A DNA stretch of 64,000 nt from Promethearchaeota archaeon. Lineage in GTDB: Archaea; Asgardarchaeota; Lokiarchaeia; Sigyniarchaeales; SOKP01. The stretch lies in the NCBI GenBank assembly GCA_019057795.1, contig JAHLWS010000087.1, forward strand, positions 43,176 through 107,175, written 5' to 3'. Every line of letters begins with the position of its first letter. Within the stretch, counting starts at the first letter, position 1. The notes beneath the pieces were generated by a model. It was given only the letters and a program-made list of their open reading frames with translations. It did no database searches and had not been told where the DNA came from. Both the position numbers and the translations under genes were made by a program. Positions 22,019-63,432 of the stretch are shown piece by piece.

Positions 22019-24274
22019 TTAAATATTTAATTTTTGGCGCCAAAAATTCATTTTCATTCTGAGGTCTTCTTTCTCCGGTTGACTAAGTACATATGTTTTA
22101 TTCCTTAGAGTTGTGCTGGTATTATGAATGTTCTTTAACACGCTGTTATATCCAGATTCTTTAATATATTCGCTTTGAAACTTTTCAAGAGCCGAAGAGA
22201 GTTCAATGCCCGTCAAAGAGTCAACATTATCAAAGATTAAGTCAAATTGTTTTGTCAACAAAGATTTTTCCCCGGATGGCGTTGTTTTTAGAACAGGCAC
22301 CTCTTTTTCAGGTGGAGCAATTACTTTTGGTATCTGAACTATTGGTTTTAATTTTACGTGTTCTTTTAGTGGTTCTTCAGCGATCTTAACGGGTTCTTGA
22401 GCTAATTTCGGTGGTGGAGTTTCTTGTATAATTGATGACTTAATAGCATGCATAACTTCCTTTCTTGCGCCCATCCAGGATTCCTCTAGAATAGGGACAA
22501 AAATTTTGATATGTTCTTCTATAATACTTCCTATTCCAGCAATCTCAGTTATAGACTCCCCTCTCACTTCTGCTTTTGAAAGCACGCATACGATTACTTC
22601 TTCGTAATCTCGATTTATACCCCATAAATTTTGTAAAGCGCGATGTCTATAATCCACATTATCCATTTTATCCATCTTTTGGATTACAGCTACGTGTTCG
22701 GGATTATCGAAATCTATATTTGCAGCTATTCTGAAATTTATCCTTGAAGGTCGCTCCATTATTGCGTTAATATCTATATCGCTGATTTGAGGGACAACGA
22801 GTAATACTCTCATTTTTGCTTTTGAAATTTCGTCGCTAATGTGTGCCTTAGCGGCTTCAGGGGAGCGAATGAACCAAATATCTTTCATTGTAATTGATCT
22901 CCCGGTTTTCGCTTGCTCCCAGAATTCACTTGTGACTTTTTCGGATCTTTCGAGTTTATTCAATATATCATCAAGCGTATTATCTAAAGTTGCGACAATT
23001 TGTTCGTAAAAAACATCTTTTAAATTGCCAAGCGATTGAAACGTCGTACCAGAGATTCCTTCTATTTTTTCTTCAGCCATTTTTATTGCTCTATTAAAAT
23101 TTTCAGTAATATCCCCGTATATCTTCTCTTTATCTTCTTCTACCTTTGAGGTAAGACCATCAATATTTTCAAGGGTACTTTTTAATGATTCTTTCAATTT
23201 TGATATTAATTCAGAATCAACGCCTTGAGTCACTTTTTTAAGCTCGTCAGAGAATGCGACTTGGCTTACGGATAGTTGCACATTGATATTATCAGAGATT
23301 TCTTTTAATTTTGCGTTTACAACCTTATCAATCACTTGTTCAACAGCTTCGGAAATTACCCCAAGACGTAACTTCTGCAGATTTTGAGAGACAGTTGATT
23401 TAATGTTCTCAAATTCGTTCTTCAAATCGCTAACCTGTCCTTTAATGATTTGAGATGTCTTTGTGTTAATATCATCAAATCTTTTTTTAAGATCGGCGAT
23501 TTGAGGTGATTCCATAACCGAATCAGCGTATCCTTCGAGGTTTGAGATTTCATCTGAGATCCCTCTAATTTGATCCATTACTACTAATGTGTCGTCAAAC
23601 TCTTTCTTCTGCGATTTAATCTGTGTTAGCATATTTTCTTTTAATTCGTTCATTAACTCAGTAGGTATGGGCTTTCTTTCAACTTTAACTTCAACCTTTC
23701 CAGACTCTGATTCTAACTGTGCAAATGATTTTTCTAGTTGGGTAGGTATGTTGACTTTAATATCTGAGATATATTTGTGAAATTTTTTTAACTGGCTAAC
23801 TAAGGCTGCGTATGGAGGTAGAGCGCTATAATGCGGTTTTGCTCCAATGATTTCCTTAAAAAGTCCTTTTTTAACAAATTTAGTCGCCATCTCTTGGCAT
23901 TCAGCTTTAGGTTTTCCCGTTAAAATTGCCATTTCGCCGATGCTAACGGCTTCACGACCCGTGATTCTGAAATACAGTTCAATCTCGTCGTCAGAGAGAT
24001 CAATTTCGCTCAAAACTTGTTTTGTAAGTTCTTTTGAATAGGAAACTTCGTCTTTTTTGAGTATTTCCTTTATTTCAAAATTCTCGACTTCTAAATATTG
24101 ATTAAAATAAACAATTAAATTATGTTCAGGGGATCCGTGTAGAATTTCTTTTTTAATCGGAAATTTTAAAACATCTTGGTATTCCTTCTTGGTTATTTTA
24201 AAAGGTATTTCTTTCAAACATAATTTACAGGTATATGGTATCTCTACTTCTTCCTTTTCTTTAAATAAATACAA
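22019..24274 (-). CDS. TrmB-like regulator with N-terminal CxxC/His metal-binding domain and long coiled-coil insert
   Basis: TCKLC...HGSPEH; TrmB-type wHTH (LSDDEIELYFRI...KKGLFKEIIGAKPHYSALPP); about 290-aa helical region; TrmB effector-like segment IWFIRSPE..ISKAKMRVLLVVP. Confidence 0.7.
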   Translation of the reverse strand: MYLFKEKEEVEIPYTCKLCLKEIPFKITKKEYQDVLKFPIKKEILHGSPEHNLIVYFNQYLEVENFEIKEILKKDEVSYSKELTKQVLSEIDLSDDEIELYFRITGREAVSIGEMAILTGKPKAECQEMATKFVKKGLFKEIIGAKPHYSALPPYAALVSQLKKFHKYISDIKVNIPTQLEKSFAQLESESGKVEVKVERKPIPTELMNELKENMLTQIKSQKKEFDDTLVVMDQIRGISDEISNLEGYADSVMESPQIADLKKRFDDINTKTSQIIKGQVSDLKNEFENIKSTVSQNLQKLRLGVISEAVEQVIDKVVNAKLKEISDNINVQLSVSQVAFSDELKKVTQGVDSELISKLKESLKSTLENIDGLTSKVEEDKEKIYGDITENFNRAIKMAEEKIEGISGTTFQSLGNLKDVFYEQIVATLDNTLDDILNKLERSEKVTSEFWEQAKTGRSITMKDIWFIRSPEAAKAHISDEISKAKMRVLLVVPQISDIDINAIMERPSRINFRIAANIDFDNPEHVAVIQKMDKMDNVDYRHRALQNLWGINRDYEEVIVCVLSKAEVRGESITEIAGIGSIIEEHIKIFVPILEESWMGARKEVMHAIKSSIIQETPPPKLAQEPVKIAEEPLKEHVKLKPIVQIPKVIAPPEKEVPVLKTTPSGEKSLLTKQFDLIFDNVDSLTGIELSSALEKFQSEYIKESGYNSVLKNIHNTSTTLRNKTYVLSQPEKEDLRMKMNFWRQKLNI

Positions 24275-24308: not shown

Positions 24309-25565
24309 TTAAAAAGTAACTTTTTCTGGAAAGGATATTTCCAATAAGTTTAAGGCTTTTTTAGCGATTTCATAAGTAATTTTTCCATCCGTTTCCTCCT
24401 TTCTATAAGCTTCTCTGATTTTTGGTAGTAAATATTCTGGAAAAATTGTTAGTGGTTTAATGTCCGTAAGCAAACAAATCCAACTTCTTTTATTTTCGTC
24501 TTTAATTTCAGTAATCACGTTTAATTTCTTTAAATTATCAAGCAAAATTTCCGTGACGGCGAACTCTGAAAAGATTTTTGGTATTTTATCTAGTGGATAA
24601 TGGTTCGAACGCATTAAGACGAAGAAATCATAAACATCAGGGTTAAGTAATATTGAAGCCAGTTTTTTGGTATTTTCAAAAGGTTCTGCATAGGGATCGT
24701 AATTTGTGAAATAGTCTGTAGATTTTTGCCTAAATAAAGGTAATAATTCGTTGTTTGTGTCCTTAAAATGCTTTAAGAGATTTTCGTTGGGAACACGGGC
24801 TAAAATTAAATCTTTGAGTAAAAATAGATACTCTCCTTGATTTGTTATCACTCCAGTCTTTTTATCTTTCTCACCTTTTACCCAATCACGCCTTGCTAAG
24901 TTCAATTCTATAAAGGGTCTAAGTAAAATATCAATATTAGCTGTAGGTTTCATTTTTTCAACTATTTTTTTCATTTCGTTTTTTGAAATGGGTTGTTCTC
25001 TTAAAGTTTCTAAGATTTTTAACCGTTCATCGCTATTATAGATTAGAGCTACTTTTTGAAGTTTGTCTAATTGACTTAAACGCTCAATTTGAAATATGGT
25101 ATACTTTAATTCGTTCATTAAACGGACGTTTACGTTGGAAACTAAATCCAATTGCCTCGTATTTACAGCTTTAGTTAATTTTTCAAAAATAGTGTCTAAT
25201 CTTTTTGCCATTTCTTTAATTAAATCCTCAAACAATTCTATTTCGTCGTCTAATTCAAATATAGACATCGCAAGATATTGAGTTCCATCGGCTAACTGCT
25301 TGAAATACGACAAAACTTGATATGGCGTTTCTTTTAAGCGGCCAGTATAGAAATTACTGAATCCGTATTTCATGCCAATAATACCCGTTGTGTGTTGATA
25401 GAACGTGGCAAATATATCGTTCTCTATGATCAGTTCTGAAAAGTCGTCTTCTTTAAATTTTTTATTCTTAAACACTAATTGAATTGGGCTAAATTCGGGA
25501 TCTATCTCCCCTGTAGTTTCATTCTGATTCAATTTAAATTGAAATGTACAAATCGATTGTATCAA
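24309..25565 (-). CDS. Hypothetical protein, predicted longin-like N-terminus plus tandem winged-helix C-terminus
   Basis: N-terminal alpha/beta pattern (YQVLSYF..QYLAMSIFELDDEIELFEDLIKEMAKRL); two wHTH-like segments (RLKILETLREQPISKNEM..LRPFIELNLA; YDFFVLMRSNHYP..LDNLKKLNVITEI). Confidence 0.5.
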   Translation of the reverse strand: MIQSICTFQFKLNQNETTGEIDPEFSPIQLVFKNKKFKEDDFSELIIENDIFATFYQHTTGIIGMKYGFSNFYTGRLKETPYQVLSYFKQLADGTQYLAMSIFELDDEIELFEDLIKEMAKRLDTIFEKLTKAVNTRQLDLVSNVNVRLMNELKYTIFQIERLSQLDKLQKVALIYNSDERLKILETLREQPISKNEMKKIVEKMKPTANIDILLRPFIELNLARRDWVKGEKDKKTGVITNQGEYLFLLKDLILARVPNENLLKHFKDTNNELLPLFRQKSTDYFTNYDPYAEPFENTKKLASILLNPDVYDFFVLMRSNHYPLDKIPKIFSEFAVTEILLDNLKKLNVITEIKDENKRSWICLLTDIKPLTIFPEYLLPKIREAYRKEETDGKITYEIAKKALNLLEISFPEKVTF

Positions 25566-25802
25566 TTTGGTTTGCCTCTAATTTTTTATAAGTAAATTAA
25601 TTAAATTAAAATATATATAATTATGTCTTAAGTAATTTATTAACTTAAATTTAATCAATTAAAATATTTAAAATTCGTTATATTGACAAAAAAAGAGGGT
25701 AATTTTTTATACGATAATTTTTTTAATACTTAAATAGGGAAAATTAGAAATATAACGAATTTAACATTATAAATTAGTAAAGAATTAATTTGGTGATAAA
25801 AT

Positions 25803-27437
25803 TTGCTATTAAGGTTTAAAATAAAGAAAAGATTTGGAGTAATACTTCTAATTATAACGATTATTATTTTTAATGCGCTACCCCTTTTATTACCTATCAA
25901 TTTTACAAGTAATAATGAGCAGTTAATAATTAAACCCTCGGGTGAAACTTATTATACAGATGTTCTTTGGCTTGATAATCCGACATTCGAAGATCCGATT
26001 GAACCTATTTGGTTTCCCGATATTGAGGGAGATGAGTCAGATGTTGATACTAGTACAAGTCTAAATCAAGCAAATCTACAAATTTTAGGAGAAGAATATA
26101 CATTTGAAGTAATAGCAGATCCACCAGATGGTAATTGGACTGCTGTTAATAATCCAAGTTTTCCTAGATTCCCAGATAATCATTTTACTGATTCAGTCGG
26201 ATTAAATGTGTATCATTATTGGGATGAAGACGAAGATCAAACCCATAATACACCCAGTGTACATTGGAAAAGGAATTTTACAATGCCGGTAAATATGGCT
26301 GATTATATAATTACTTCTGCTTCAATTCAATCAACATTTAATGCAACAGTTACTGTGGGGCCTCATAGTGGAGGGGGTATAGATTGTCCTGGTGATACAC
26401 TACCCCAATCTTCGACATTTGATTATGCTAGATTTTATGTTTTAGTATCTGATCCTAATAATACGTATGAATATGAGATTGCTTATAACCAAACTGTTGA
26501 TCTAGGTCAAGATTCTCCAGAAATATCTAATTATAGCGATACGCGAATGGTAAATATTCCAGAAGACGTTTTAATTGCATTCTTAACATCTATTTTTAAA
26601 GAAAATAATTTTAATTTCACTATTACATTAGGAATCGACATTTATTGTGAAGATAATGAACCAGGTGTTGATGAAGACAGGTGGGATTCATTAATCATTA
26701 GATCATTGGATTTTAAATTTACTTACAGAAAGAAAATAGACCAATTTACTTCAGTATCTTGGAACCAAGAAGGTGCCGCAATTAGTGGAAGTAACAAGTT
26801 AATTACCGGAGCGACCCTTCTATTCAAATATAAAATTGATCAAGATTGGACTAGTTCTTCTCCTAATTCTGAAATAAGAGTTTTAATTAATAATAATCTA
26901 CATTCAGAAACTATAAAATTAAGTAAAGTTACAAATACTTTTCAAGAGGCAAAAACCGGAGGTTATGATGTAACTTTCTTAATTTTAAAAGATGTCAATA
27001 TAAGCCTTTCAATTCAAATATATTTAGCAGATGAGTTTGGTTTAGAAAAAGTAATAACTGTTTCGATCACAGATGTTTACCTTTATATATCTTATATTGT
27101 AACTTTTCCGGATATTTTTTCAGAACCTTGGATATTTGCGGGATTATTTATTATTGCAATAATCGGTGCCTCACTTTTAGCAGCTTATCTTATTGCATAT
27201 CAAACATACTTAAAATATCCTGTCCCGGTTAGAAAAGTTAGGAAATATAGAAAAACATTAACTAAAGAAAAAGATCCTGGAGTACACATAATTAAACGCA
27301 AGAGTTCATTTAAAAAAATCTTTCGAAACGAATTAGATAAAACATCTAAATTTTTAAAAGGCGCCCCTCTCGATGGCAAAATAATAAGAGAGAAATTAAT
27401 AGGGAATCAACAAACGGGAAGCAATTCAGAAAAATAA
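25803..27437 (+). CDS. Single-pass surface glycoprotein 1 with conserved basic cytoplasmic tail
   Basis: Basic plus hydrophobic N-terminal signal; many N-x-S/T sequons; C-terminal TM followed by YQTYLKYPVPVRKVRKYRKTL; GGTGA RBS. Confidence 0.85.
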   Translation: MLLRFKIKKRFGVILLIITIIIFNALPLLLPINFTSNNEQLIIKPSGETYYTDVLWLDNPTFEDPIEPIWFPDIEGDESDVDTSTSLNQANLQILGEEYTFEVIADPPDGNWTAVNNPSFPRFPDNHFTDSVGLNVYHYWDEDEDQTHNTPSVHWKRNFTMPVNMADYIITSASIQSTFNATVTVGPHSGGGIDCPGDTLPQSSTFDYARFYVLVSDPNNTYEYEIAYNQTVDLGQDSPEISNYSDTRMVNIPEDVLIAFLTSIFKENNFNFTITLGIDIYCEDNEPGVDEDRWDSLIIRSLDFKFTYRKKIDQFTSVSWNQEGAAISGSNKLITGATLLFKYKIDQDWTSSSPNSEIRVLINNNLHSETIKLSKVTNTFQEAKTGGYDVTFLILKDVNISLSIQIYLADEFGLEKVITVSITDVYLYISYIVTFPDIFSEPWIFAGLFIIAIIGASLLAAYLIAYQTYLKYPVPVRKVRKYRKTLTKEKDPGVHIIKRKSSFKKIFRNELDKTSKFLKGAPLDGKIIREKLIGNQQTGSNSEK

Positions 27438-27613
27438 AAAATGATTTTTTTCAAAATGTTATCTTTTATTATCAAATCTTTTTAATTCATAATATTTGGT
27501 CAAACCCATTCTCATCAAATTAATTTAAAAGCATAATTTTACTAATTATTAATATTGACATCTTATATTAAGAATTTATAATCATTCTTATAATTACAAA
27601 AGGTATAAAGAAT

Positions 27614-30600
27614 ATGAATTTAGCAACAAATAGAAAGAAGAGATTGTACGCGTTATTGACTCTTTTAAGTATTTTCGTAGTAAATGCAGCTATAATAAAT
27701 TTTACCTACATCCCAAATAATTTAAATGAAAAAATAATTAAAAAAGTTATAGATGTTCCTAAAAATAACGATCTTACTTCTGATAATAAGTATAATGGTA
27801 TAGGAGATGCATGGAATATTACTCATTGGGCAAATCGTACGGATTATGATCTCCCCGCAAGTTTTGAAGAGAATTCATATGATATGGTGGAAATGCCCTT
27901 AGGTACCGATTGGGTTGGTTATAAATTAAATGCCTCAATTAATAATCTATATGATTCAAGAAACTGGAATAATGGAACTTTTAATTTTGGTGATAATAAT
28001 ACATATGCTACCGGGGAAGACGATTCTTTATACATTACAAATAGTTATCAAAATTGGACTTTTCATGAAAATGTTGTTGGTTCTTCAAATGTTATGTCTG
28101 GAAATTATCTAGATAAAAATGCTGTAACACCAGTTAATACCCAAAACCATGATAGTTTAGAATTAAGAATGGCGGGAAATAGATACAATGATTCTGGGGA
28201 TCCATATTGGTATAGATATCGGTATGATACCGGAGATAAATGTTCATGGTCAAGTTCTTTTCATATTCCAAGAGGAAAGGTTATTGATAGTTGGTTAAAA
28301 TTTCAAGTAAATCCAATCCATATAATAAGTTTTAACTCTTGGGAGTTTAGAATATTTTTAAATGGTATTAAAGTTTATTCTGATGGCTTGTTTACATTAA
28401 AACAGCGAGGACAAAATACATGGCATAATTTCACAATTCCTCAGGGACTTTGGATAAACACATCAGATGTTTATTCAACAACCTTCTTAAATGATTCAAA
28501 TATTAGTATCGAAATTGCTTTAGAATATACAGCAACGAGTGCGGGTTATGGGTATGAAGATGGTGAAAATAGAGATTATCAACAAGTTCTTATTGATAAC
28601 GTAGAATTAGAAACTAAAGCTGAAGCTCAACCTTCAGACATACAATTAAAAAGTAATAATACAATTGTGGAAGATATTAGTTGGGGGAAAGGAAAAGTAG
28701 AAATTAATGGTAATTGGCAGAGTGTTGATGGGAAGGTATATACTAATTTTAGTTGCGATGATGTTGGCCAATTGGGAGCTTTTTCTATTGATATACTAAG
28801 TGATTTAAACCTTCATGCGATAAAACATACGCCTGAAAGTAATTATGAAACTAATGTAGGGTCTATTGGAACAAAATTTTCTGTAAATAATGAAAGTTCA
28901 GTTAATTGGTTATGTTATGGTCGAGTTAATGTACCTACGAGGTATGAGGAAACAGAATTGAAAATTAATTTTCCCACTGATGTTAATATTACCTCCGTTT
29001 TTGATCCTCAGAACCCTTCTTTAAATATTCTGAGCCAGTGTGATAATTCGACTCCAGGTGTTTTATCAATACCCGTAAATACTATTTCACTTACTCCAGA
29101 TGGATTTTGGAAATTTGAAGCAGTTTCACCTAACTATTGCAAAGATTTAATGATCTACAATAACGAAACTGGAGCCTGGATTCGAAATAATAACTTCCTA
29201 AGCGGTGATTTTATTAATATTACCGCAAAAATTACAAATTCTCCAGAAATATCTAGTTACATTCAAAATACAAAAGCATTTCTTCAAATTAGGTTTCCGA
29301 ATGGCACTTTATGGTCTGATCAAAGTCAATTTGCTTCAGTCGATATTAATGGTAATGTTATTTTTATGCTGTTTCAAATACCCACAGCTCCACCAAATTA
29401 CGAAGTTGGAGAATATGAGGCAATTATAACTTGGAATAATTCTTATTCTATTTATGGTTTAAATGAAACGGGTATTATTTATAAGAAATTTAATATAATC
29501 CATGAATCTAAGCTTGTTCCTGACGAATTTTATTATGAAGATATGAAAGAAAATTCTAGTTTTAATTTAAAAATATCTTTCTCCGACTCAGTAGATAATG
29601 AACCTATAACAAATGCTATAGTATATACATTTAATTTTACTCATCCTTCAGTAAAGCAATATTTTAGTGAAATAAGTCCCGGTTATTATTTTCTCGAATT
29701 CAACGTAGAGGATGGAATATTAGGTAATAATACTTTAAGTATTTATGCTAATTCGTCTAATTATGAGAATAAAGTAGTTAATATCAAAATTGAGGTGATT
29801 AGAGAAACAGAGCTTACTGTTGATAATGATTTTATAAATAATGTACTTTTTGAGCAGAATTTTACCATTCAATTCAATTATACTGAAAAACTTTCTAGTA
29901 CAGGAATTAATCCGGATTCTCTCTCAACCGATTGGTTAGGTAATTATTCTTTCATTGAAATAGCCACAGGGAGATATAATTTAACATGCAGTACCCTTGG
30001 TTATAATGCAGGTCAACTTTATACATTAAATCTTTATGTAGATGCCTATAAATATGAAGCTAAATCTATATCAATAAAAGTTTATATTACTGAACTTAAA
30101 TCATCTTTAGAATTGTTTGTTAATAGTAATGCACTACAACCTAATGATGTATTTACTGTTGATGTATGGGAAAAGATAAACATAACAGTTTTTTATAAGG
30201 ATATACACGGAAATCCCTTAACTGGGGCAATAATAAATGTAACAAGTGGGTCTTTTTCATATCAATTAAATGAAAATCTTTTATTTAATCACTACAGTTT
30301 AATTTTGGATGCTACTGAATTAGAACAAGGAATTGATAATCTTGTTGTTTTTGCTCAATTGGTTAATTATGAACCACAAACTATTCCATTTATAGCAGAA
30401 ATTATAGAAAGGTCAACAATCATCGAAATTTTATTTGATGGGGTAAATAAGACAGATGATCCTACAATAGATATTACTATTGGTCAAACATTAAATATTA
30501 CTGTAAATTATATGGATGATGAGTATCATCACATACAAGGGGCAATGGCACAGCTTTCTGGTGATTTAATTGGGAATTTGAGTGAAAACTTAATATTTGA

Positions 30601-31363
30601 GCAATATTCATATATTTTAGATACATCTCAGTTAGATATTGGAGTTAGAATTATCACTCTTTCTGCTTCAAAAACAAACTTTCAGCTTCAAACTGAGAAT
30701 CTTAGAGTAAATATTCAAAGAATAAGGACAAATATTACTACAATATCGGGCGAATCAATATTTACGATTCAATCGGGAAATAATATTCTCCTACAATTAA
30801 TTTTGAATAACGAGGATTTTGGGGGTACGATTAAAAATGCAAATCTAACATATAGATGGCAATTTGGAGAAGGAGAACTTATTGATCCTGATTCTGATGG
30901 AATATATGAAACGACATTAACCAATTTACCAGTTGGGTCATACACAATTACTATTACTGCTGATAAAGGCGATAATTATGATTTTGAAAGGTATCAAATA
31001 ACAATTACGGTAATTAACCCTCCAAATGAATTTTTAATTTTCTTGATTCTTTTAATTACAGCTTCTATAACAGCAGTGTCATTAGTTAGTTATCTAATAT
31101 TATACAAAAAAGTTTTGAGATATCCAAAACAAGTAAGAAAGGTTAGAAAATATCGAAGAACTTTAAAAAAAGCGAAGAATCCAAAGATAAATATAATACC
31201 ACGTAAAGAAGCGTTCAATAATCAATTTAAAGATGAAATAGGTAACACTTCTACATTATTAAAGGGAAAACCTTCAGAAAGTATAATTCAAGTAGATAAA
31301 TTAAAAGCAATAAAGTTAATGAATGAATCTGATAACCAAACAAATGATGGAGGGAATAAATAA
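27614..31363 (+). CDS. Large single-pass surface glycoprotein 2 (beta-rich head, Ig-like stalk repeats, DxDxDG motif, conserved tail)
   Basis: Signal peptide, dense sequons, about 100-aa beta repeats, DPDSDGIYE, TM, YKKVLRYPKQVRKVRKYRRTL. Confidence 0.88.
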   Translation: MNLATNRKKRLYALLTLLSIFVVNAAIINFTYIPNNLNEKIIKKVIDVPKNNDLTSDNKYNGIGDAWNITHWANRTDYDLPASFEENSYDMVEMPLGTDWVGYKLNASINNLYDSRNWNNGTFNFGDNNTYATGEDDSLYITNSYQNWTFHENVVGSSNVMSGNYLDKNAVTPVNTQNHDSLELRMAGNRYNDSGDPYWYRYRYDTGDKCSWSSSFHIPRGKVIDSWLKFQVNPIHIISFNSWEFRIFLNGIKVYSDGLFTLKQRGQNTWHNFTIPQGLWINTSDVYSTTFLNDSNISIEIALEYTATSAGYGYEDGENRDYQQVLIDNVELETKAEAQPSDIQLKSNNTIVEDISWGKGKVEINGNWQSVDGKVYTNFSCDDVGQLGAFSIDILSDLNLHAIKHTPESNYETNVGSIGTKFSVNNESSVNWLCYGRVNVPTRYEETELKINFPTDVNITSVFDPQNPSLNILSQCDNSTPGVLSIPVNTISLTPDGFWKFEAVSPNYCKDLMIYNNETGAWIRNNNFLSGDFINITAKITNSPEISSYIQNTKAFLQIRFPNGTLWSDQSQFASVDINGNVIFMLFQIPTAPPNYEVGEYEAIITWNNSYSIYGLNETGIIYKKFNIIHESKLVPDEFYYEDMKENSSFNLKISFSDSVDNEPITNAIVYTFNFTHPSVKQYFSEISPGYYFLEFNVEDGILGNNTLSIYANSSNYENKVVNIKIEVIRETELTVDNDFINNVLFEQNFTIQFNYTEKLSSTGINPDSLSTDWLGNYSFIEIATGRYNLTCSTLGYNAGQLYTLNLYVDAYKYEAKSISIKVYITELKSSLELFVNSNALQPNDVFTVDVWEKINITVFYKDIHGNPLTGAIINVTSGSFSYQLNENLLFNHYSLILDATELEQGIDNLVVFAQLVNYEPQTIPFIAEIIERSTIIEILFDGVNKTDDPTIDITIGQTLNITVNYMDDEYHHIQGAMAQLSGDLIGNLSENLIFEQYSYILDTSQLDIGVRIITLSASKTNFQLQTENLRVNIQRIRTNITTISGESIFTIQSGNNILLQLILNNEDFGGTIKNANLTYRWQFGEGELIDPDSDGIYETTLTNLPVGSYTITITADKGDNYDFERYQITITVINPPNEFLIFLILLITASITAVSLVSYLILYKKVLRYPKQVRKVRKYRRTLKKAKNPKINIIPRKEAFNNQFKDEIGNTSTLLKGKPSESIIQVDKLKAIKLMNESDNQTNDGGNK

Positions 31364-31365
31364 TA

Positions 31366-34300
31366 ATGAGGATAAAAAACAAAAGAAAAATTAACCGTTC
31401 GGCGATTATTAGGGTCTTTTTAATTATTCTTTTAACTCTTGATTTATCTAGTCTTAACTTGAATCAGCTAATTCCCACTGATAATAAGGAGATTCAAAGA
31501 AACATTTTTGATCTTGAAAATACACTTAATAGCCAAGATGTATCTTTTGATAATATACATAGCGGTATTGGTGCACCTTGGAATTTAACTCACTGGGCAA
31601 ACAGAACAGATTACGATTTATCAGTAAGCTTTCCTGAAGGGGCCAACGATATGGTTGATATTCCTTTAGGTAGTAGTTGGAAAGGGTACAAATTAAGCGC
31701 AAATATTAATGATTTGGTTGATAAGCGGAATTGGAATAATGGTACTTTCAATTTTGGTGATGATGATGGAACTGATGCTGCTGGAGAAAATGATACTAAT
31801 GATATAACAAATATTTATCAAAATTGGACATTTGTGAAAAATGATACAGGTCTCGGTAATAATTATATGAGCGGTAATTATAATTCGAGTGTGGGAGGAA
31901 ATAATTGTTTAGAATTAAGAATGGATGGTAATAACACTGTTGTATCTGGTCCACTTGAATGGTGGACATATGACCCTGATGATAAATGTTGGTGGAGCAG
32001 CTCCATACAAATACCACGTGGAAAAATAATTGATAGTAGTTTGAAATTTGATCTATATCCAAATCATTTAGCACATTTTAATTCATGGGCATTTGCTATA
32101 TATTTAAATGCTAAAAGAGTTTATTCTATAGGTACTTTTACATTATCACAGTATGGACAAGATGCGTGGCACAGTTTTACTATTCCTCAAAATATCTGGA
32201 CGAATACATCTAATGTTTTTTCGAATAATCCTATAAATAATTCATTAATTGATATTAAACTTGCTCTAGAATGTGTAGGTGGTGGAAATTTTTCTGGTTT
32301 TGCAAATAGGACTTTCCAAAGGGTATATGTTGATAATGTTGAATTAATTACCAAGGCAGAAGTTCTTCCATCTTATATTGAATTAAACATGAACCAAACA
32401 ATTGTACAAGATATTGACTGGGGTCGAGGGACTGTTGAAATTGAAGGGGAATGGGAATCTACTACAGTCTTTGCAAATTTCAGTAGTACTGATGTAGGAG
32501 AATTGGGAAATTATGACATTAATTTAAAGACTAACTTGAATTTATATGGGATCAAGCATACTCCAGAAACAAATTATGAAACTGATGTTGGCTCATTAGG
32601 GACTGTTTTTTCTGTAAGTAATGCAAGTACTGTGAATTGGGAGAGTTATGGTTTTATTGCTATTCCAACGGGATATTCTGAGTCAGAGATGAGACTTGAA
32701 TTTCCGATTGATGTCATTATTACTTCCGTTTTTGAACCTGAAAATCCTTCTACCAATATTTTAATCTTATGTGACAATTCTATACCTGGAAGATTAATAA
32801 TACCAGTAGATGCTATTTCCACTACTCCTGACGGATTTTGGAAATTTGAAGCTGTTTCACCTAATTATTGCGAAGATTTAATGATCTATAATAATGCAAC
32901 AGGAGCCTGGATTCGAAATAATAACTTCTTAAGCGGTGATTATATTAATATTACTGCAAAAATTACCAATTCTCCGGTAATATCTAGTTACATTCAAAGC
33001 ACAAAAGCGTTTCTTCAAATTCGGTTTCCAAATGGTACTTTATGGTCTGATCAAAGTCAATTTGCTTCAGTTGATTCAAATGGTAATGTAAATTTTATGC
33101 CGTTTCAAATACCTTCAGTACTACCGAATTACGAAGTTGGAGAATATGAGGCAATAGTTACCTGGAATAATTCCTACTCTATTTACGATTTGAATGAAAC
33201 AGGTATTCTTTATAAAAAATTCAATATAATCCACGATTCTATTTTAATCCCAGATATTAATTATTTTGAAGATGTAATTGATGGTTCTGTATTAAATTTA
33301 AGAGTATCATTTAATGATTTACAGAATTTTGATGCTATTGAAAATGCGATTGTATACACTTATAATTTCACTCATCCTTCAATAATTCAATATTTCAGCG
33401 AAATAAGCCCAGGTTATTACTTTCTTGAATTTAATGTTACTGGGGCTCCGAATGCTGGTAATAATACCTTAACCATCTATGCTAGTTCGCCTAATTTTAT
33501 AAATAATGAAGTAAATATAACAATCGATATCATTAAAAATACAGTTCTTACAGTTGATAATGATTATTTAACAGGAGTTCCAATCGAGCAGAACTTTACA
33601 ATTCAATTATCTTATACTGAAAGCTATAGTGGTATGGGAATTGACACAAATAATCTTTCGACAAATTGGGCAGGTGAATATCACTTTGCTACGATTACTC
33701 AAGGATTATATACTCTTACTTGTAATGCTTCTGGTCCGGGATACCAACCAGACAAGCTTTATTCAATGATAATTACAGTTAAAGCTAATAGATATCAACC
33801 TCAATCAATTCCAATTAGAATTTTTATAACTAAAAAAGCATCATTTTTGGAATTATATGTAAATGGCACTCAAAAGTTTGAAGACGATTTAGTTTCAATT
33901 GAATTTTGGCAACAATTAAATATTACAATAACTTATAAAGATGTCTCCTCTAGACATTTAGGCGGTGCGTCAATAAAATTAACCGGAGGAGGAATTTCCA
34001 AACCATTAATAGAAAAGCCAATTCTAGGTCAATATAGTCGTTTATTAAATGTCTCTGAATTAGGTTTAGGGCTTGATTATTTATCAATATTTGCTAATGT
34101 ATCTAATTATCTCCCTCAATCTATTCGCTTTATTACTGAAGTAACTAAAAGAAAAACCCTATTGGAAATCTACTTAAATGGAGTTGATAGAACTACTGAT
34201 CCATCTATTGATATTGCTATCGGTGACTTTTTAAATATTACTATAAGATATACTGATACGAATGGTAATCACATTGAAAATGCTGCAGTTAATTTGTTTG

Positions 34301-35076
34301 GAGCCATCTCAAATAGCTTAATTGAAGATAAAACATTAAAACAATATTCATACATTTTGAATACAAGCATTTTAGATATTGGAATCAGAATGATTGCTAT
34401 TTCGGCAGAGAAAGAAAATTACGAACTTCAGACTGATGATCTCAGAATCGAAATCAGACGGATTTTTACGAATATTACCACTGAGGATGGAATTTCTAGA
34501 ATTTCTGCCCATCCAGGAGATAATGTGGTAATTAAAATTATTTTGTATGATTTAGATTCTGGAGAAACCATAAAAGGCGCGATTGTGTCATACAGTAGTC
34601 CTTATGGACAAGGATATTTAACAGATCCAGATAATGATGGGATATATGAGGTAGTATTTGAAAATATACCTGAAAGTACTTTTAAAATTACCATTTCAGC
34701 TTTTTATGGGGATAATTATGATTTTGAAAATTATGAAATAACGATTAGTGCTATAAGACCAGCAGCAGAAGCATTATTGCTTCTAATTTTAATAATTGCT
34801 ATAACTTCAGCGGCTATAATAATAGGGGGGTATATATATGCTTACCAAAAATATTTAAAATATCCCAAACCCGTCAGAAAAGTTCGAAAATACCGAAAAA
34901 CACTGAGAAAAACAAGCGATCCAAGAACGGATATAAAGGAGAGAGAGAAGGCATTCAAAGTTGAATATAAAACTGAATTAGATAAAACATCTAAATTATT
35001 AAAAGGAAAACCCGTAGAACCAATTATTAAACTAGAAAAGATTCTAAAGAAACCAGTTGAAGGTTCTAATAATTAA
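31366..35076 (+). CDS. Large single-pass surface glycoprotein 3 (full-length paralog of 27614..31363)
   Basis: Colinear with the previous gene (THWANRTDYDL, TPDGFWKFEAVSPNYC, DPDNDGIYE); TM; YQKYLKYPKPVRKVRKYRKTL; starts 2 bp after the previous stop. Confidence 0.88.
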   Translation: MRIKNKRKINRSAIIRVFLIILLTLDLSSLNLNQLIPTDNKEIQRNIFDLENTLNSQDVSFDNIHSGIGAPWNLTHWANRTDYDLSVSFPEGANDMVDIPLGSSWKGYKLSANINDLVDKRNWNNGTFNFGDDDGTDAAGENDTNDITNIYQNWTFVKNDTGLGNNYMSGNYNSSVGGNNCLELRMDGNNTVVSGPLEWWTYDPDDKCWWSSSIQIPRGKIIDSSLKFDLYPNHLAHFNSWAFAIYLNAKRVYSIGTFTLSQYGQDAWHSFTIPQNIWTNTSNVFSNNPINNSLIDIKLALECVGGGNFSGFANRTFQRVYVDNVELITKAEVLPSYIELNMNQTIVQDIDWGRGTVEIEGEWESTTVFANFSSTDVGELGNYDINLKTNLNLYGIKHTPETNYETDVGSLGTVFSVSNASTVNWESYGFIAIPTGYSESEMRLEFPIDVIITSVFEPENPSTNILILCDNSIPGRLIIPVDAISTTPDGFWKFEAVSPNYCEDLMIYNNATGAWIRNNNFLSGDYINITAKITNSPVISSYIQSTKAFLQIRFPNGTLWSDQSQFASVDSNGNVNFMPFQIPSVLPNYEVGEYEAIVTWNNSYSIYDLNETGILYKKFNIIHDSILIPDINYFEDVIDGSVLNLRVSFNDLQNFDAIENAIVYTYNFTHPSIIQYFSEISPGYYFLEFNVTGAPNAGNNTLTIYASSPNFINNEVNITIDIIKNTVLTVDNDYLTGVPIEQNFTIQLSYTESYSGMGIDTNNLSTNWAGEYHFATITQGLYTLTCNASGPGYQPDKLYSMIITVKANRYQPQSIPIRIFITKKASFLELYVNGTQKFEDDLVSIEFWQQLNITITYKDVSSRHLGGASIKLTGGGISKPLIEKPILGQYSRLLNVSELGLGLDYLSIFANVSNYLPQSIRFITEVTKRKTLLEIYLNGVDRTTDPSIDIAIGDFLNITIRYTDTNGNHIENAAVNLFGAISNSLIEDKTLKQYSYILNTSILDIGIRMIAISAEKENYELQTDDLRIEIRRIFTNITTEDGISRISAHPGDNVVIKIILYDLDSGETIKGAIVSYSSPYGQGYLTDPDNDGIYEVVFENIPESTFKITISAFYGDNYDFENYEITISAIRPAAEALLLLILIIAITSAAIIIGGYIYAYQKYLKYPKPVRKVRKYRKTLRKTSDPRTDIKEREKAFKVEYKTELDKTSKLLKGKPVEPIIKLEKILKKPVEGSNN

Positions 35077-35231
35077 AGAGTCAAATTAATATAAAATCTA
35101 GTTAATTTTTCATTTTTCAATTTTTTATTTTCACATAATATATAATATTTCTCAAAATAATTACTAAGCAATATAATTTAAATAAATAGTAAAGAAAATT
35201 GAAATATTATCATAATTTAATGATTGTATAG

Positions 35232-36293
35232 ATGAGTTCTAATATTAAAATTTTTAAGTTAAATTATTCTGGAACCTTTAAGGAAATTTCAGAAGAGAAG
35301 ATACTCCTTAACTTTACTCTATTCGATATTTTAACATTTTACGTGCCAAATCAAAGATTAATGTATATTTGGATTGGGAAAAAAGTCTCGCAAAGTTTGA
35401 AAAAACTTATCCCACAAATACGAGGAGCTATTTCAAGTGAGTATCCCGAATTAAAGATTTTAAGAAACATTACAATCGAATCGGGATTAGAACCTGCCGA
35501 ATTTTTAAGTATTATTGGGGTTACAGAAGAGGTCCTGAAAGCTAGAATTAAAAAGCTAGAGATTAATTTGTTACCAATTCTCTCTGAAATAAACAGGTTA
35601 AAAGAAAAGGTAGATAAGTATTTCATTTCAGAAAATTACAATATGGCAATTAATGCTGCTCAGAAAATTGTTAACCTTGCCAAGGATATAGACGATGATT
35701 CTCTTGAGCAAGATCAAATCAACTTTATCAACGAAGCTCAATCGAAAGCGCACGCTAGCGAAGCTCTCTACCAAATAGAGCATCAAAGTAAGGAAGTTAT
35801 TAAACAATTTAACCAGTTAGTGGAGGTAGAGGATTATCGAGAGGCACATAGCCTAGCAGAAGATTTTAAAAGAAAATACGAAAATGAATACGACATTTCT
35901 TCAATTCCCTTAGCCCAGCAATTAATATTAAAAGATGAAAACATGATATATAGTTTGAAAATCGAACAAGAAAAGATAAAAAAGGAAATTGATGAATTCT
36001 ATAATTCTTTTAAGACAGGTCCCAATAAAGGTAATTTAAAGCAAGCAAAAGAATTTTTTGGAAAAATTAAAGCTGAGATTAAGAATTTATTTGATGATGA
36101 TGTTTTAAATAGTTTGAAACAATTTGAAGCCCGATATAATGAAGCAAAAAAAGAAACAGTTAGTGAAATAGCTCAAGTAAGTATGGAAGCCCTTAATAAT
36201 TTGGAAAAAGGTGAAATATCTAAAGCTATAGAAATCTTTGAAAAAATTATCAAAAAATTAGAATTTAACAATAAAACATTGACGGGTGCATAG
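35232..36293 (+). CDS. Gelsolin-like domain fused to TPR-like helical repeats
   Basis: N-terminal ~95 aa with gelsolin hallmarks MYIWIGKKVS and IESGLEPAEFLSII; remainder is amphipathic helical pairs. Confidence 0.72.
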   Translation: MSSNIKIFKLNYSGTFKEISEEKILLNFTLFDILTFYVPNQRLMYIWIGKKVSQSLKKLIPQIRGAISSEYPELKILRNITIESGLEPAEFLSIIGVTEEVLKARIKKLEINLLPILSEINRLKEKVDKYFISENYNMAINAAQKIVNLAKDIDDDSLEQDQINFINEAQSKAHASEALYQIEHQSKEVIKQFNQLVEVEDYREAHSLAEDFKRKYENEYDISSIPLAQQLILKDENMIYSLKIEQEKIKKEIDEFYNSFKTGPNKGNLKQAKEFFGKIKAEIKNLFDDDVLNSLKQFEARYNEAKKETVSEIAQVSMEALNNLEKGEISKAIEIFEKIIKKLEFNNKTLTGA

Positions 36294-36295
36294 TA

Positions 36296-37264
36296 TTGGA
36301 TTTAAACTCAGACAAAGAGACTAATAATAAGAAAAAAATAGTAGTTTTATCTAAAATTGATGAGTTGAAAGTAATAGCGAATAACCACTATCTAATGGGC
36401 AAATTTGATGAAGCAATAAAAATAGCAGAAGAAATAATGGATATAGCTGAAGGAGCTAAATTATATTCTATTGTAAGGGAGGAAGGAGAGTTCATTGCAG
36501 AGCTTTATAAAAAAGTTAAAGATAATAATAAATTTATTGAAATTGAAAAACAACAAAATATTCTAAAAAAACAACTTGAACCATTAGAAATCCAGTTTAA
36601 TAGCTACATAAGTACTAATAATATCACATTAGCAGAAGAAACATTAGAACAAGCAAAAACTCTCCTAAAAAAGCTTAAAGATACCGAAACGCTGAAAATG
36701 TGGGAAACATCTGAAGCAATGTTTTTAGAATTAAGAAAAAAGATTGATATCAATGAAGACATTGAACATTCATTGGCAGAAGTTTCAAGATTAATAGATA
36801 ATTACGAATTTGATAAGGCAAAACAAATACTTAACTCTAAGATAGAATTTTTGCAAAAAGAAGATTTCTTAGATCATCAACAGAAATTAAAAATAAAAAT
36901 GAAAAGTTTAATTGATGCTGAGGATAAATATTTTAAATTAGAAGAAGATTTAAAAGATTTAGAAAGCGAAATTAAACAAAATGTTTCTCAAAATCAATTT
37001 GAGCAAGCAATAAACAATATTAAGAAAATCGTTAAAATTTCAAGGTTTATTGGTAAAAGTAATTACTTAAAGAAATACACTGAATATATCGATATTATTG
37101 AAAATAAGATAAGGGAAGTTTCCAAAATCGAAGATTTAAAAACTAAGGTTAACAATATAAACGTCCAAGGCATCGAAGCCTTGAAATATGACGATTATTC
37201 TGGAGCTCTTGAAATATTTAAAGAAATATTGAACCAATTAAAAGCTGTTTTTAATAAAAAATAG
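36296..37264 (+). CDS. TPR-like helical repeat protein, similar to the C-terminal part of 35232..36293
   Basis: IDELKVIANNHYLMGKFDEAIKIAEEIMDIA resembles INRLKEKVDKYFISENYNMAINAAQKIVNLA; starts 2 bp after the upstream stop. Confidence 0.7.
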   Translation: MDLNSDKETNNKKKIVVLSKIDELKVIANNHYLMGKFDEAIKIAEEIMDIAEGAKLYSIVREEGEFIAELYKKVKDNNKFIEIEKQQNILKKQLEPLEIQFNSYISTNNITLAEETLEQAKTLLKKLKDTETLKMWETSEAMFLELRKKIDINEDIEHSLAEVSRLIDNYEFDKAKQILNSKIEFLQKEDFLDHQQKLKIKMKSLIDAEDKYFKLEEDLKDLESEIKQNVSQNQFEQAINNIKKIVKISRFIGKSNYLKKYTEYIDIIENKIREVSKIEDLKTKVNNINVQGIEALKYDDYSGALEIFKEILNQLKAVFNKK

Positions 37265-37369
37265 TTTTTATTTTCTTCTTAATAACCAGTTTAATTAATA
37301 TCAAACGGTTTATAATTTTTTAACGAAGGTATTAAATAGTAAAAATTCTATATAATTTTTGGATTAAAA

Positions 37370-37816
37370 TTGATCCAAGAGATTATTATTCTTAATGACA
37401 TGGGTATTCCCATATTTTGCCATAACTTTAGCGGTAGTTCAAATAAGGATAATAATTATCAATTAATTGGTAGCTATTTCGACCAAATTTGCCGATTTGC
37501 CAAATACGGGTTCAAAGAAAGTTTAACCACTATAAAAATGAAAAAAAGCGTATTTTATTTTAAAACGCATCCTAAAACTAATTTTCATCTAATATTAAAA
37601 TGTGATAGTAAAGTCGATAATAAAAAGCTTAAAAAAAAGGCAATTGATAATATTGCAGTTAAAATCTTTGATAATTTCTTTGTTAAATTTAAAAGAGAAT
37701 TGATGAATTTTAACGGAAATATTGCTCCTTTTAAAATTTTTTCTAAAGATATTGATGAGATGATAAAACCTAAAGGGCTTTTGAGAAATTTTGTAATAAG
37801 TCCTGGAGTTTTTTAA
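37370..37816 (+). CDS. Stand-alone longin-like domain protein
   Basis: MIQEIIILNDMGIPIFCHNF..QLIGSYFDQICRFA..FHLILKCD..FFVKFKRELMNFNGNIAPFKIFSKDIDEMI. Confidence 0.75.
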   Translation: MIQEIIILNDMGIPIFCHNFSGSSNKDNNYQLIGSYFDQICRFAKYGFKESLTTIKMKKSVFYFKTHPKTNFHLILKCDSKVDNKKLKKKAIDNIAVKIFDNFFVKFKRELMNFNGNIAPFKIFSKDIDEMIKPKGLLRNFVISPGVF

Positions 37817-56892: not shown

Positions 56893-57777
56893 TTACTTAA
56901 GAGTTTTATTTATGGCTTCTCTTAAAATCGCGTGAATTTTCTCTCTATAATTAGGATTAATTGCAATCATTCCGTGGACTTTAATAGGTGGGTTTCTTTC
57001 CGCTTCGGACAGTATCCTTTCACAAAATTTAGGGGTTAACCTATTTGGCAAATCTTGTTTATTCGCGATTCCAACGACTAAAACATCCTTATAATAAACA
57101 TCTAAAATATCCCGAATAATATTTTTACTATAGTTTACATTCTCAAAACTAGAATCAAGCACTAGGAGAGCTATGTCAGTACTATCCAATAAACTTTTCC
57201 ATAAAGACCGATAATTACTTTGACCAGCAAAGTCCCACAGGACAATGGAACGGTGAATATCAAGTTCTTCACCGTTATATGAGGTGATAGCCACATTTAT
57301 GGTCGGGATGTATTCTAAATCTATATCCTTACCACAAATGAGATGTAATAGAGTGGTCTTACCCACACCTCCAGTTCCAATAATAGATACTTTTATAGAG
57401 CCAAGAATCGTATCGTCAATCTCTCTTTCAAAATCTGTAAAAATAGCGCGATTTCCGGTCCAATCACCACTCGCTAAAAGTTCTCCATACTTTTCAATGA
57501 ACTTTGCTCTTATCGTCGTAATTTTCGAGTTAACTACAGCGTCATCATCCACAAGATCCGTGCATACTACAATTATAATCTCATCGATAATCGTATAGTA
57601 GTACTTAAACTCGTCTGTAGCCGTGGATTTTATGTCGCTTTGGCTTATTTCTTTCATAAACCCCGAAAAAGCGCTTAAGAATCCCGCTAATAAGTCTCTA
57701 TCCACATCAGAACTACCATAATTCCTGAATAGCAGAGATTTTCCAGTTCGGGTCAATATATTAATGTATTGAATCAT
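56893..57777 (-). CDS. Longin-like domain fused to Ras-superfamily (Arf/Rab-like) small GTPase
   Basis: N-terminal longin-like domain (INILTRTGKSLLFRNY..DLLAGFLSAF); G1 GTGGVGKT, G2 YIPT, G3 WDFAGQ, G4 NKQD. Confidence 0.9.
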   Translation of the reverse strand: MIQYINILTRTGKSLLFRNYGSSDVDRDLLAGFLSAFSGFMKEISQSDIKSTATDEFKYYYTIIDEIIIVVCTDLVDDDAVVNSKITTIRAKFIEKYGELLASGDWTGNRAIFTDFEREIDDTILGSIKVSIIGTGGVGKTTLLHLICGKDIDLEYIPTINVAITSYNGEELDIHRSIVLWDFAGQSNYRSLWKSLLDSTDIALLVLDSSFENVNYSKNIIRDILDVYYKDVLVVGIANKQDLPNRLTPKFCERILSEAERNPPIKVHGMIAINPNYREKIHAILREAINKTLK

Positions 57778-58646: not shown

Positions 58647-58692
58647 AAATATATATTTATTAAATTTTAGGATATGGTCTTAAACTAAAAAA

Positions 58693-62800: not shown

Positions 62801-63432
62801 CTCAAAAAGCAAATTATCTACCCTATTCAATCCTCTTGAGAATTAATGTTAAAAGGATTAATACGGAAATTACAACAAAATCTGGAATGTCAACAATAAA
62901 TACGGGACCGGGTGAAAGTGTTACATTAAGTATAGTTTTAAATGATATAGATTTCAACCAAACCGTTAAAAATGCATCAGTTACTTATACATGGGCATTT
63001 GGGCAAGGAGTGCTTTTAGATTCTGATAATGACGGTATCTACGAGGTTATTTTGGCAAATTTACCTGTAGGGACTCATACTATAACTATTTCTGTTTATG
63101 CAGGGGATGATTATGATTTTAAACGCTTCGAATTAACTTTAAATGTAATAAGACATCCAGAAAATGTGATACTTTTTCAGATTTTAACCGTACTTAGCGT
63201 CATTACTGCTTTAGGTGTAGGTGGTTATCTTGTAGCATATCAAAAAGTGTTTAAATATCCTAAAACGGTCAGAAAAATCCATAAATTTAAAAAATCCATT
63301 AAAAAAGGAAAAAAACAACCAAATGTTGAAATTCGTTCAAGAAAAGAATTAATTAAAAAACTCTACGAAGAAAGTTTAGGACCCTTATCTAAATTAAAAG
63401 AAGATAAAAATAATAAAGTTAAATTAAAATAA
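59887..63432 (+). CDS. Large single-pass surface glycoprotein 4, paralog of the 27.6-35.1 kb proteins
   Basis: Signal peptide; GRWKIVAESPNY, Ig-like repeats, DSDNDGIYE, TM, YQKVFKYPKTVRKIHKFKKSI; GAGGAG RBS. Confidence 0.88.
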   Translation: MHSEKVRKPCILAFLLSFLIICVIFDSNLLFEISNINFENEKNLPIPNYSSTSEYSGVGSAQNVTEYGEGFFQNNNLNVTNLENASIIVPDTWEANEIAVNITNIYEYDRLWMNHSFDNGFDENSWTNHTDPSKTDYLSFNWYNDPIGSNDSLCMKFINASTYWDDIDSYWNFTFNLDRENIPYIEWSINFNYRFLTNNSEWLSAGGGTKFYSTIIVNDKTTQFNLPKFDTHVNDTWYSDNIEPFSPELYEYDPPGTVSVLFGVYWGKNIFFNPTGYLELFFDNITLNLQTIPKPSQINLTLTDIEHGIIKQIDDISGYGLGNTTLKDSWAGSVGGKEHRFSFASNSSGKVYINSDFFVKANSSRFTTTEIGEKGSEFCTKNETRTVWTMYFPVVIPGSYQTNYYFNVSKPINWNVTHLFDPYGSDKISQVLETSGIGNSTLVIPNEIIVNGRWKIVAESPNYVLTTKIWKWNETDTSWEESTNFETYDVIKINCTIDNDLISNLESTNASLLVYYPNNTEWSQAYQEIAPDFSGNVEFNNFTLGALNASAGEYILNIKWNNINSSQIGFSSLNFENTHNTILDRANDQEPIVTPIYTGDTILIKVNYTDIDIGVGIIGAYVNYTIDNETAITGDTVYFGGGIYIAEIDTINWQNGLYNVSISAEKPYYKSQYEDQIIQLEVTERTTLTTPQIGGVTVPWGKNVSINVSYNGTNNQGISGADIDCDWDFIFYSVQDEGLGRYKLILNTTIKTIDTYMLKINASKDGYENREIYIPINIRNIYTNITYIQPEPVNFNSNVSIQLKFSDIDSNFLISGAELMISSEFDSQYWDSSKYFYFEPTLGTYNVTFDSSIFNGVGTFQIYTTLNRTYYSNASTLINIFIIDISTSLNLYLDGVDKTLEQSIELPIRSNFNITIKYTDAKTKYHIVNASIQLIGEGLSELLIENTVLKQYSIIINTAQLDIGVRFLTIYAQKANYLPYSILLRINVKRINTEITTKSGMSTINTGPGESVTLSIVLNDIDFNQTVKNASVTYTWAFGQGVLLDSDNDGIYEVILANLPVGTHTITISVYAGDDYDFKRFELTLNVIRHPENVILFQILTVLSVITALGVGGYLVAYQKVFKYPKTVRKIHKFKKSIKKGKKQPNVEIRSRKELIKKLYEESLGPLSKLKEDKNNKVKLK

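Follow-up and report, generated by a model that had tools for sequence, protein, structure and literature searches.

To what are the cytoplasmic tails of archaeal surface proteins connected inside the cell? The question is raised by a locus in a 64,000-nucleotide stretch of DNA (the window, meant at its full length throughout) from a Promethearchaeota archaeon of the Lokiarchaeia (GenBank assembly GCA_019057795.1, contig JAHLWS010000087.1, positions 43,176 to 107,175), in which three genes for single-pass surface proteins with a shared tail (g3 to g5) are flanked on one side by two minus-strand genes, g1 and the longin/winged-helix gene g2, and on the other by a gelsolin gene, its paralogue and a longin gene (g6 to g8). 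The window has a G+C content of ~30% and comes from an assembly of 4.95 Mb in 87 contigs; close relatives of its proteins were found only in Promethearchaeota/Lokiarchaeia-type metagenome bins, and none of g1 to g8 matched a Pfam or NCBIfam family above threshold. A preliminary description of this DNA, whose open reading frame coordinates all proved exact on re-checking, had counted six co-oriented genes, and g3 to g8 indeed all lie on the plus strand. The reading that we favour, with a confidence a little above even, is that the tail of the surface protein is bound by the longin/winged-helix adaptor g2, that g2 leads on to what is probably a small GTPase, and that the actin-related block g6 to g8 is a lineage-specific neighbour.

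The surface proteins are encoded by g3 (25803..27437, 544 amino acids), g4 (27614..31363, 1249 amino acids) and g5 (31366..35076, 1236 amino acids), the last two being only 2 bp apart. Each consists of an N-terminal hydrophobic segment, a long ectodomain, one C-terminal transmembrane helix and a tail of ~80 amino acids. The tails range from 66 to 85 amino acids in length, and their first 66 residues form a conserved cytoplasmic module (27198..27395 in g3, 31103..31300 in g4 and 34843..35040 in g5, all on the plus strand) with the motif Y-x-K-x-L-K-Y-P-x-P-V-R-K-V-R-K-Y-R-K-T-L ... T-S-K-x-L-K-G-x-P. A profile built from 40 tails matched g3 to g5 at E values from 6e-28 (g3) to 1e-25, and positions Y1, P8, R12, R15, L21 and P27 never varied among 40 copies from 13 genomes. 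The basic stretch following the transmembrane helix has a net charge of +15, and conservation spans ~55 residues, running past this basic cluster through P27, I31 and F38 to the T-S-K-x-L-K-G-x-P end. Full-length identity between g4 and g5 is 54%, while g3 has only the membrane-proximal part and the tail in common with them. The number of N-x-S/T sequons is about twice that expected from shuffled sequences (40 vs 20 +/- 3.8 in g4, 35 vs 18 +/- 3.7 in g5), an excess that fits ectodomains that are probably glycosylated. The transmembrane and tail analysis and the tail profile thus agree with the preliminary description, which had proposed three single-pass surface proteins with a conserved cytoplasmic tail. 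By contrast, its "Ig-like stalk" came solely from sub-threshold matches to PKD, Big_1 and CarboxypepD_reg, and a tandem Ig-like stalk is not demonstrated because self-BLAST of g3 to g5 gave no internal repeats; a phmmer search with g5 against the PDB gave no match.

The gene order in relatives points to the neighbours that go with the tail. Profile searches were carried out over 301 Asgard genomes sampled phylum-wide, and the tail module was found in 61 of the 68 genomes of the same family, with weak matches in the sister family and a third family. At 12 loci of the same genus, the order is g1 and g2 on the minus strand, three to five tail genes, g6, g7 and g8 on the plus strand, and then g9 to g11 on the minus strand, a convergent block made up of a GNAT gene (g9) and two further genes. 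In this genus, g6 comes directly after the tail genes in at least 21 of the 27 genomes sampled. However, gene order within the genus says little on function because all flanking genes are conserved there too. Another 12 loci, from five further genera, retain g1, g2, one to three tail genes and g9 to g11 without g6 to g8, and g6-g7 in these genera are found on other contigs or, in one genome (G207), 190 kb away on the same contig. Given that five genera keep the two families apart, linkage between tail and gelsolin genes is dispensable; and given that they keep the g1-g2-tail locus without the gelsolin block, the genes that universally adjoin the tail genes are g2 and g1. A g1 orthologue adjoins g2 in 20 of 20 fetched loci, with tail genes beside the two in all 20. 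In ~38 genomes of the family, g2 lies 1-7 kb from the nearest tail match on the opposite strand, with no exception among the pairs listed on one contig.

The g2 gene (24309..25565, minus strand, 418 amino acids) is separated from g3 by a 237-bp spacer, and its product is 58-85% identical between genera. A structural model based on 21 homologues, with a predicted local distance difference test (pLDDT) score of 77, contains a longin domain (residues 1-165), a helical hairpin and two winged helices, in accordance with the longin/winged-helix assignment of this divergent upstream gene in the preliminary description. Structural alignment of the longin domain by VIA-align gave FLCN (6nzd_H, Z 11.8, root-mean-square deviation (rmsd) 3.2, 143 aligned), a Loki longin (8yqg_B, Z 11.3, rmsd 3.1, 138 aligned), Lst4 (4zy8_C, Z 11.1, rmsd 3.1, 131 aligned) and GATOR1 (8fw5_B, Z 10.3, rmsd 3.0, 130 aligned), and Foldseek gave FNIP2 at an E value of 6e-4. 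The structures closest to the g2 longin are those of FLCN, FNIP2, C9orf72/SMCR8, Lst4, the NPRL subunits of GATOR1 and the solved Lokiarchaeal longin. At the level of sequence, no Pfam NPR2/NPR3 or folliculin match to g2 was obtained at E <= 1. Longins of the GTPase-activating protein (GAP) type are marked by a GP motif before the second strand and by a catalytic arginine finger (PMC12290439). At the site of this motif, g2 has invariant G19 and P23, and the stand-alone longin g8 has invariant G12 and P14, neither pair being contiguous. The idea that g2 is the "DENN-domain protein" of a published Asgard operon was also considered and rejected, since g2 and seven relatives showed no DENN match, and a winged helix-turn-helix (wHTH) instead.

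We then modelled g2 together with the 66-residue tail module (g5 sequence), using our own alignments, three runs and three controls. The median score of the three runs was 0.81, as opposed to 0.00 for the best control (n=3), giving the verdict "supports binding". The mark for this verdict is attained by 58 of 80 solved complexes and by 2 of 110 mismatched pairs, counts that are only roughly applicable here because our own alignments were used. The runs share at least 47% of their contacts, with a partner pLDDT of at least 51. The modelled interface is formed by g2 residues 252-292 and 370-412, in the winged helices, and by tail residues 8-55, and it contains the invariant stretch F375-P376-E377-x-x-L380-P381, the best-conserved motif of the entire g2 superfamily. 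The conserved tail of g3 to g5 is accordingly modelled on the winged-helix half of g2, where it is predicted to dock. In the preliminary description, the tail coupled the surface proteins to cytoplasmic adaptors, and g2 was named only as a neighbour. Of this, the general idea holds while the partner changes: adjacency in every genus examined, paralogous pairs and the complex model all favour g2.

The paralogous pairs are found elsewhere in the same genome, where three g2 paralogues lie directly 3' (0-30 bp) of genes for giant single-pass proteins. On contig C65 (104374-111881), a 1442-residue protein of this kind is followed by a g2-like protein of 378 residues and a g1-like protein of 663 residues; on C42 (4563-11218) and C24 (25201-30617), giant proteins of 1850 and 1437 residues, respectively, are each followed by a g2-like protein of 367 residues. 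Each of the three surface proteins carries its own tail subtype. A closed genome of the sister family (L072) has a g2 orthologue, a g1 orthologue and a tail-bearing protein encoded consecutively on the same strand. The window itself holds a fourth tail-bearing surface paralogue (59887..63432, plus strand, 1181 amino acids) that is 28-31% identical to g4 and g5 over nearly its full length and has a variant tail (tail profile E 4e-15). A strict regular expression for the tail caught only the three window genes g3 to g5; the profile was needed for this fourth copy and the C65 copy. More distantly, the g2 superfamily profile matched 184 of the 301 sampled genomes. In ~7 of 17 distant loci (four families), a single-pass surface protein is encoded next to or near the g2-like gene, and the juxtamembrane motif P-x-x-V-[RK]-K-[IV] is common to these surface proteins.

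The same loci suggest where g2 may lead. A longin-Arf-like GTPase gene adjoins the g2-like gene in 7 of the 17 distant loci (five families), and the window contains a gene of this type, a fusion of a longin to an Arf/Ras-type small GTPase (56893..57777, minus strand, 294 amino acids), close relatives of which are immediate neighbours of g2-like genes in five other Asgard families. Its GTPase half matches TIGR00231 at 50.2 bits (cut-off 42.5) and the Pfam Roc, Ras and Arf families at ~1e-15 and has an NKQD motif; its longin half (residues 1-123) is matched by the g8 profile at an E value of 2e-7.

The genes, their folds, the synteny pattern and a complex model that passes its test are directly supported, and they can be arranged as two units lying side by side, the first comprising g1, g2 and g3 to g5 and the second g6-g7-g8. 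In the first unit, variable and probably glycosylated ectodomains would be displayed outside the cell, each joined by its one transmembrane helix to a basic tail of ~66 residues. The tail would dock on g2 at its two C-terminal winged helices, around an F-P-E-Y-L motif found phylum-wide, and the docked tail would keep g2 at the membrane. There, the longin of g2, being of the FLCN/FNIP/NPRL/SMCR8 type, could meet a small GTPase, the likely client being the longin-Arf-like GTPase at 56893-57777, and the cassette would in this way relay information or position from the surface of the cell to a switch formed by a small GTPase, with g1 serving as a coiled-coil scaffold or regulator. The second unit would be a separate actin-regulating unit that came to adjoin the first in some lineages. 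By contrast, we infer the binding itself, the choice of GTPase client, and whatever signalling or coupling of the two units there may be.

Several observations weigh against this receptor-adaptor-GTPase chain. All claims of binding in it are predictions. The modelled interface shows no significant excess of invariant g2 residues (13 of 38, p 0.08), because g2 is conserved throughout, and the longin portion of the g2 model has a pLDDT of only 55-69. Neither a contiguous GP motif nor the arginine finger of GAP-type longins was identified in g2 by sequence, without structural superposition. The candidate GTPase gene lies 31 kb from g2 in the window, and the 17 distant loci are a small, hand-picked sample and no census. 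Further, ArsR/MarR-type wHTH domains are found in g2-like relatives (HTH_5 at 33.6 bits in one of them), residues 88-154 of g1 resemble TrmB (Pfam, sub-threshold, E 0.002), and a divergent gene pair beside its targets is the classic layout of a transcription regulator. Finally, the adjacency of tail and gelsolin genes took at least two events (see below), which could mean selection for their linkage and not mere neighbourhood.

These points raise the possibility that g1 and g2 are DNA-binding regulators, TrmB-like and ArsR/MarR-like, of the surface genes, that the conserved tail has some other role, and that the tail-g2 interface is a false positive. The product of g1 (22019..24274, minus strand, 751 amino acids) combines a TrmB-like wHTH with a long coiled coil and a C-terminal domain, and its Atlas feature matches fall in clusters from Promethearchaeota, including one with TrmB on 33% of its members; for g7 and g1, the Atlas searches gave no useful family other than this TrmB and no Atlas model for either protein. 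The first winged helix of g2 is basic (isoelectric point 9.6), and DNA binding and tail binding by g2 were not told apart by an analysis of its charge. In addition, among 44 neighbours picked blindly for the benchmark of the method itself, 7 gave a pass in the complex test. However, the genes of the sister family and of the three paralogous loci are co-directional and 0-30 bp apart, an operon-like rather than a divergent arrangement, and the tail subtype changes along with the g2 subtype. The three complex controls all scored 0.00 against 0.81 for the tail, the N-terminal longin of g2 is of a GTPase-handling type, and a longin-GTPase is its recurrent neighbour. We therefore consider a purely regulatory role of g1 and g2 unlikely.

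Another reading, that of the preliminary description, takes the six co-oriented genes as one machine, in which the tail recruits g6, g7 and g8 and the gelsolin couples the surface proteins to Lokiactin, an analogue of adhesion complexes. The presence of a genuine gelsolin domain speaks for it. The g6 gene (35232..36293, plus strand) encodes 353 amino acids, of which residues 31-99 match the Thor gelsolin ProGel 7c2f_B (E 3.2e-4 with the single sequence, 1.3e-4 with the profile), with a further match to Loki 2DGel 7whg_G at 6e-3, and these solved Asgard gelsolins bear out the earlier assignment of the domain. Gelsolin likeness is confined to residues ~1-100, while residues ~110-350 weakly resemble helical or TPR-like entries and match g7 (36296..37264, plus strand, 322 amino acids), which begins 2 bp past g6, the gap reported earlier. 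The protein g6 has the layout of 1DGelX, a single gelsolin domain followed by a helical non-gelsolin domain X, and g7 is a paralogue of its domain X without the gelsolin domain. Positions ~111-346 of the g6 profile match g7 and its orthologues, which lie directly 3' of g6 in nearly all g6 genomes; the profile gave an internal repeat ~115 residues long. The TPR label given earlier to the C-terminal half of g6 and to g7 was not established: all Pfam matches were sub-threshold, the best being TPR_2 at 21.7 bits (cut-off 27) for one g7 repeat and the others lower. Because the calls fall under the Pfam thresholds, we do not file g6 and g7 as TPR proteins. The g6 family was found in 48 of the 68 genomes of the same family and in 6 of 7 of the sister family, and elsewhere among the 301 genomes not at all at E <= 1e-10.

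By homology to characterised Asgard gelsolins, the g6-g7-g8 unit most likely regulates actin. In L. ossiferum, Lokiactin co-precipitates gelsolins, and a search for a regulated adhesion system is under way in this organism (PMC13716822). The synteny also lends this reading some support. Besides the frequent tail-g6 order in the same genus, tail genes are linked to g6 in three genomes of a second genus, at two loci of which (L044, L045) they adjoin g6 and g7 while g8 has been relocated to the opposite flank of g6. The two genera whose tail genes adjoin the gelsolin block do not group as sisters in the g2 protein tree, and the adjacency thus took at least two events (gains or losses), having arisen or persisted at least twice. 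The deep nodes of the g6 protein tree are not resolved, and it does not give the direction in which the gelsolin block moved. The linkage of gelsolin, "TPR" and longin genes to tail genes in relatives, on which the preliminary description depended, is thus present in two genera and absent from five others, whose g1-g2-tail-g9 loci lack g6 to g8 and whose g6-g7 lie elsewhere. Moreover, the conserved and modelled partner of the tail is g2.

The DNA between g5 and g6 was also inspected for signs of a common transcript. The spacer (35077-35231, 155 bp) has three oligo-T runs right after the g5 stop codon and then TATA-like boxes, which hint at a terminator and a promoter and hence at separate transcripts, a weak indication in DNA of 14% G+C, as this kind of hand scan gives a weak signal in spacers of 14-16% G+C. 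In two RNA libraries of one study, contigs ~96% identical to the window bridge the g6/g7 junction (35478-36980) and take in the last part of g6 and the greater part of g7, which weakly suggests expression of the pair in a relative. The RNA runs contained just 5-9% of the words sampled from the stretch and left the g5/g6 spacer, most of g5 and, in the RNA-labelled runs, g8 uncovered. Weighing the linkage in two genera against its absence in five, we regard one machine built from all six genes as distinctly unlikely, and return to g2 as the partner of the tail.

A narrower bridge between the two units could be built by g8 (37370..37816, plus strand, 148 amino acids). An AlphaFold2 model from 26 homologues (pLDDT 76.7, predicted template modelling score 0.73) has two strands, a helix, three strands and two helices, which is the longin order, and its best Foldseek match is AP2 sigma (E 5.7e-5). 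Nearly all of its 28 PDB matches at E <= 1e-3 are longins, including AP sigma, TRAPP Bet5/Trs23/Tca17, Mon1-Ccz1, CPLANE, Sec22b and SRX, and model and matches both confirm the earlier designation as a stand-alone longin. The g8 profile gave only chance-level matches against the PDB. Exhaustive profile searches placed g8 as one branch of a diffuse family with members that stand alone or form the N-terminus of longer proteins. A g8-type longin is linked to g6-like genes in the sister family as well (L050). Because longin domains commonly heterodimerise, we propose that g8 might pair with the longin of tail-bound g2 in the two block-bearing genera and bring g6/g7 to the cytoplasmic face of the surface proteins; we rate this as a long shot. 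If true, such pairing would be a primitive physical link from surface adhesion molecules to actin severing or nucleation in the closest archaeal relatives of eukaryotes.

That the tail is a sorting, insertion or anchoring signal without a dedicated adaptor, its neighbours being coincidental, is very improbable, for although a C-terminal transmembrane helix with a strongly basic stretch (+15) recalls positive-inside or C-terminal anchor signals, the ~66-residue module is far longer than short basic stubs and conserved well beyond the basic cluster, and the tail gene is tied to g2 over genera and paralogues.

Some further arrangements were seen around members of these families. Ahead of the fourth tail-bearing paralogue in the window, two plus-strand genes (58005-59373) encode a 213-residue coiled-coil protein, the C-terminus of which weakly resembles that of g1, and a 226-residue wHTH-like protein; they may be a reduced version of the g1/g2 pair, and neither gave a significant match to the g2 profile. 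In other genera and the sister family (L043-L050), g6-like gelsolin proteins are 540-914 residues long with additional X repeats. The gene after the g6-like gene in a closed sister-family genome (L050) encodes a 693-residue protein that ends in a g8-type longin. A 1487-residue neighbour of a sister-family g6-like gene was considered as a surface protein and rejected, having no transmembrane helix and an SMC-like end. A separate g2-like subfamily of 386-428 residues in family f9 (L079-L081) has its own conserved neighbours, encoding a protein of 215-235 residues, a small single-pass membrane protein of 250-300 residues and a P-loop protein of 560-605 residues. At two other loci (L071, L076), the g2-like module is fused to a C-terminal TPR-like or helical extension, for a total of 591-692 residues.

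Cultured Lokiarchaeia and Hodarchaeia adhere and crawl by means of actin-filled protrusions (PMC13716822). For a connection between surface and interior, the locus supplies candidates: the tail, g2 with its defined predicted interface, and the longin-Arf-like GTPase. If the chain holds, a receptor-adaptor-small-GTPase relay made of "eukaryotic" folds predates eukaryotes. The analysis also corrects an over-reading in terms of actin, since gelsolin genes adjoin tail genes only in some lineages. The preliminary description knew of no account of this arrangement, and our literature search turned up none; no paper was found on the conserved surface-protein tail, on its pairing with a longin/winged-helix protein or on gelsolin genes beside such a cassette. 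The proposed cassette would combine Asgard components that are already known into a receptor-adaptor-GTPase logic, a proposal that lends itself to direct testing.

Among published Asgard proteins, the closest to g6 of the actin block is 1DGelX, a protein with one gelsolin domain and a domain X predicted to be a coiled coil, which in its Thor version nucleates and severs actin in vitro without calcium and which has counterparts of similar layout in Lokiarchaeota (Akil et al. 2020, PMC7444086). The protein g6 shares with it a gelsolin/cofilin-type domain followed by a helical domain X. By contrast, the likeness of the g6 domain X to that of the Thor protein is one of layout, and the g6 profile gave no match at E <= 1e-10 outside its own order. 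The pairing of g6 with g7 and g8, near surface genes in two genera, was not found in that paper. Fusions of longins to Arf/Rag-like GTPases are published for Asgard archaea (Tran et al. 2024, PMC10933270; Liu et al. 2020 preprint), and the gene at 56893-57777 and the neighbours of distant g2-like genes share the published layout. In MK-D1, GTPase genes generally lie outside operons with roadblock or longin genes (Tran et al., PMC10933270). In the papers searched, we found no description of the recurrent adjacency between longin-GTPases and the g2 family that was observed here in five families.

Asgard longins resembling FLCN/SMCR8 and NPRL2 have likewise been published (PMC12290439; bioRxiv 10.1101/2020.10.19.343400). 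In common with NPRL2/NPRL3 of GATOR1, FLCN/FNIP and C9orf72/SMCR8, g2 combines a longin domain (Z 10-12) with a non-longin C-terminal half and has a small GTPase gene as a recurrent neighbour of its family. Its C-terminal half, however, is made of two winged helices and not of DENN, with no match at the level of sequence, and its predicted ligand, the tail of a surface protein, is without counterpart in those complexes. The comparison with cargo-tail recognition by adaptor protein (AP) complexes and with integrin-talin/kindlin is one of design. No homology of the tail or of the g2 binding half to these systems was found, the modelled tail binds the winged helices and not the longin, and a direct link to actin is unsupported. 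Nevertheless, the sigma and mu subunits of AP complexes contain longin folds, AP sigma is the best structural match of g8, and all of these systems, like the cassette proposed here, would join a single-pass protein through a short conserved tail to a soluble adaptor.

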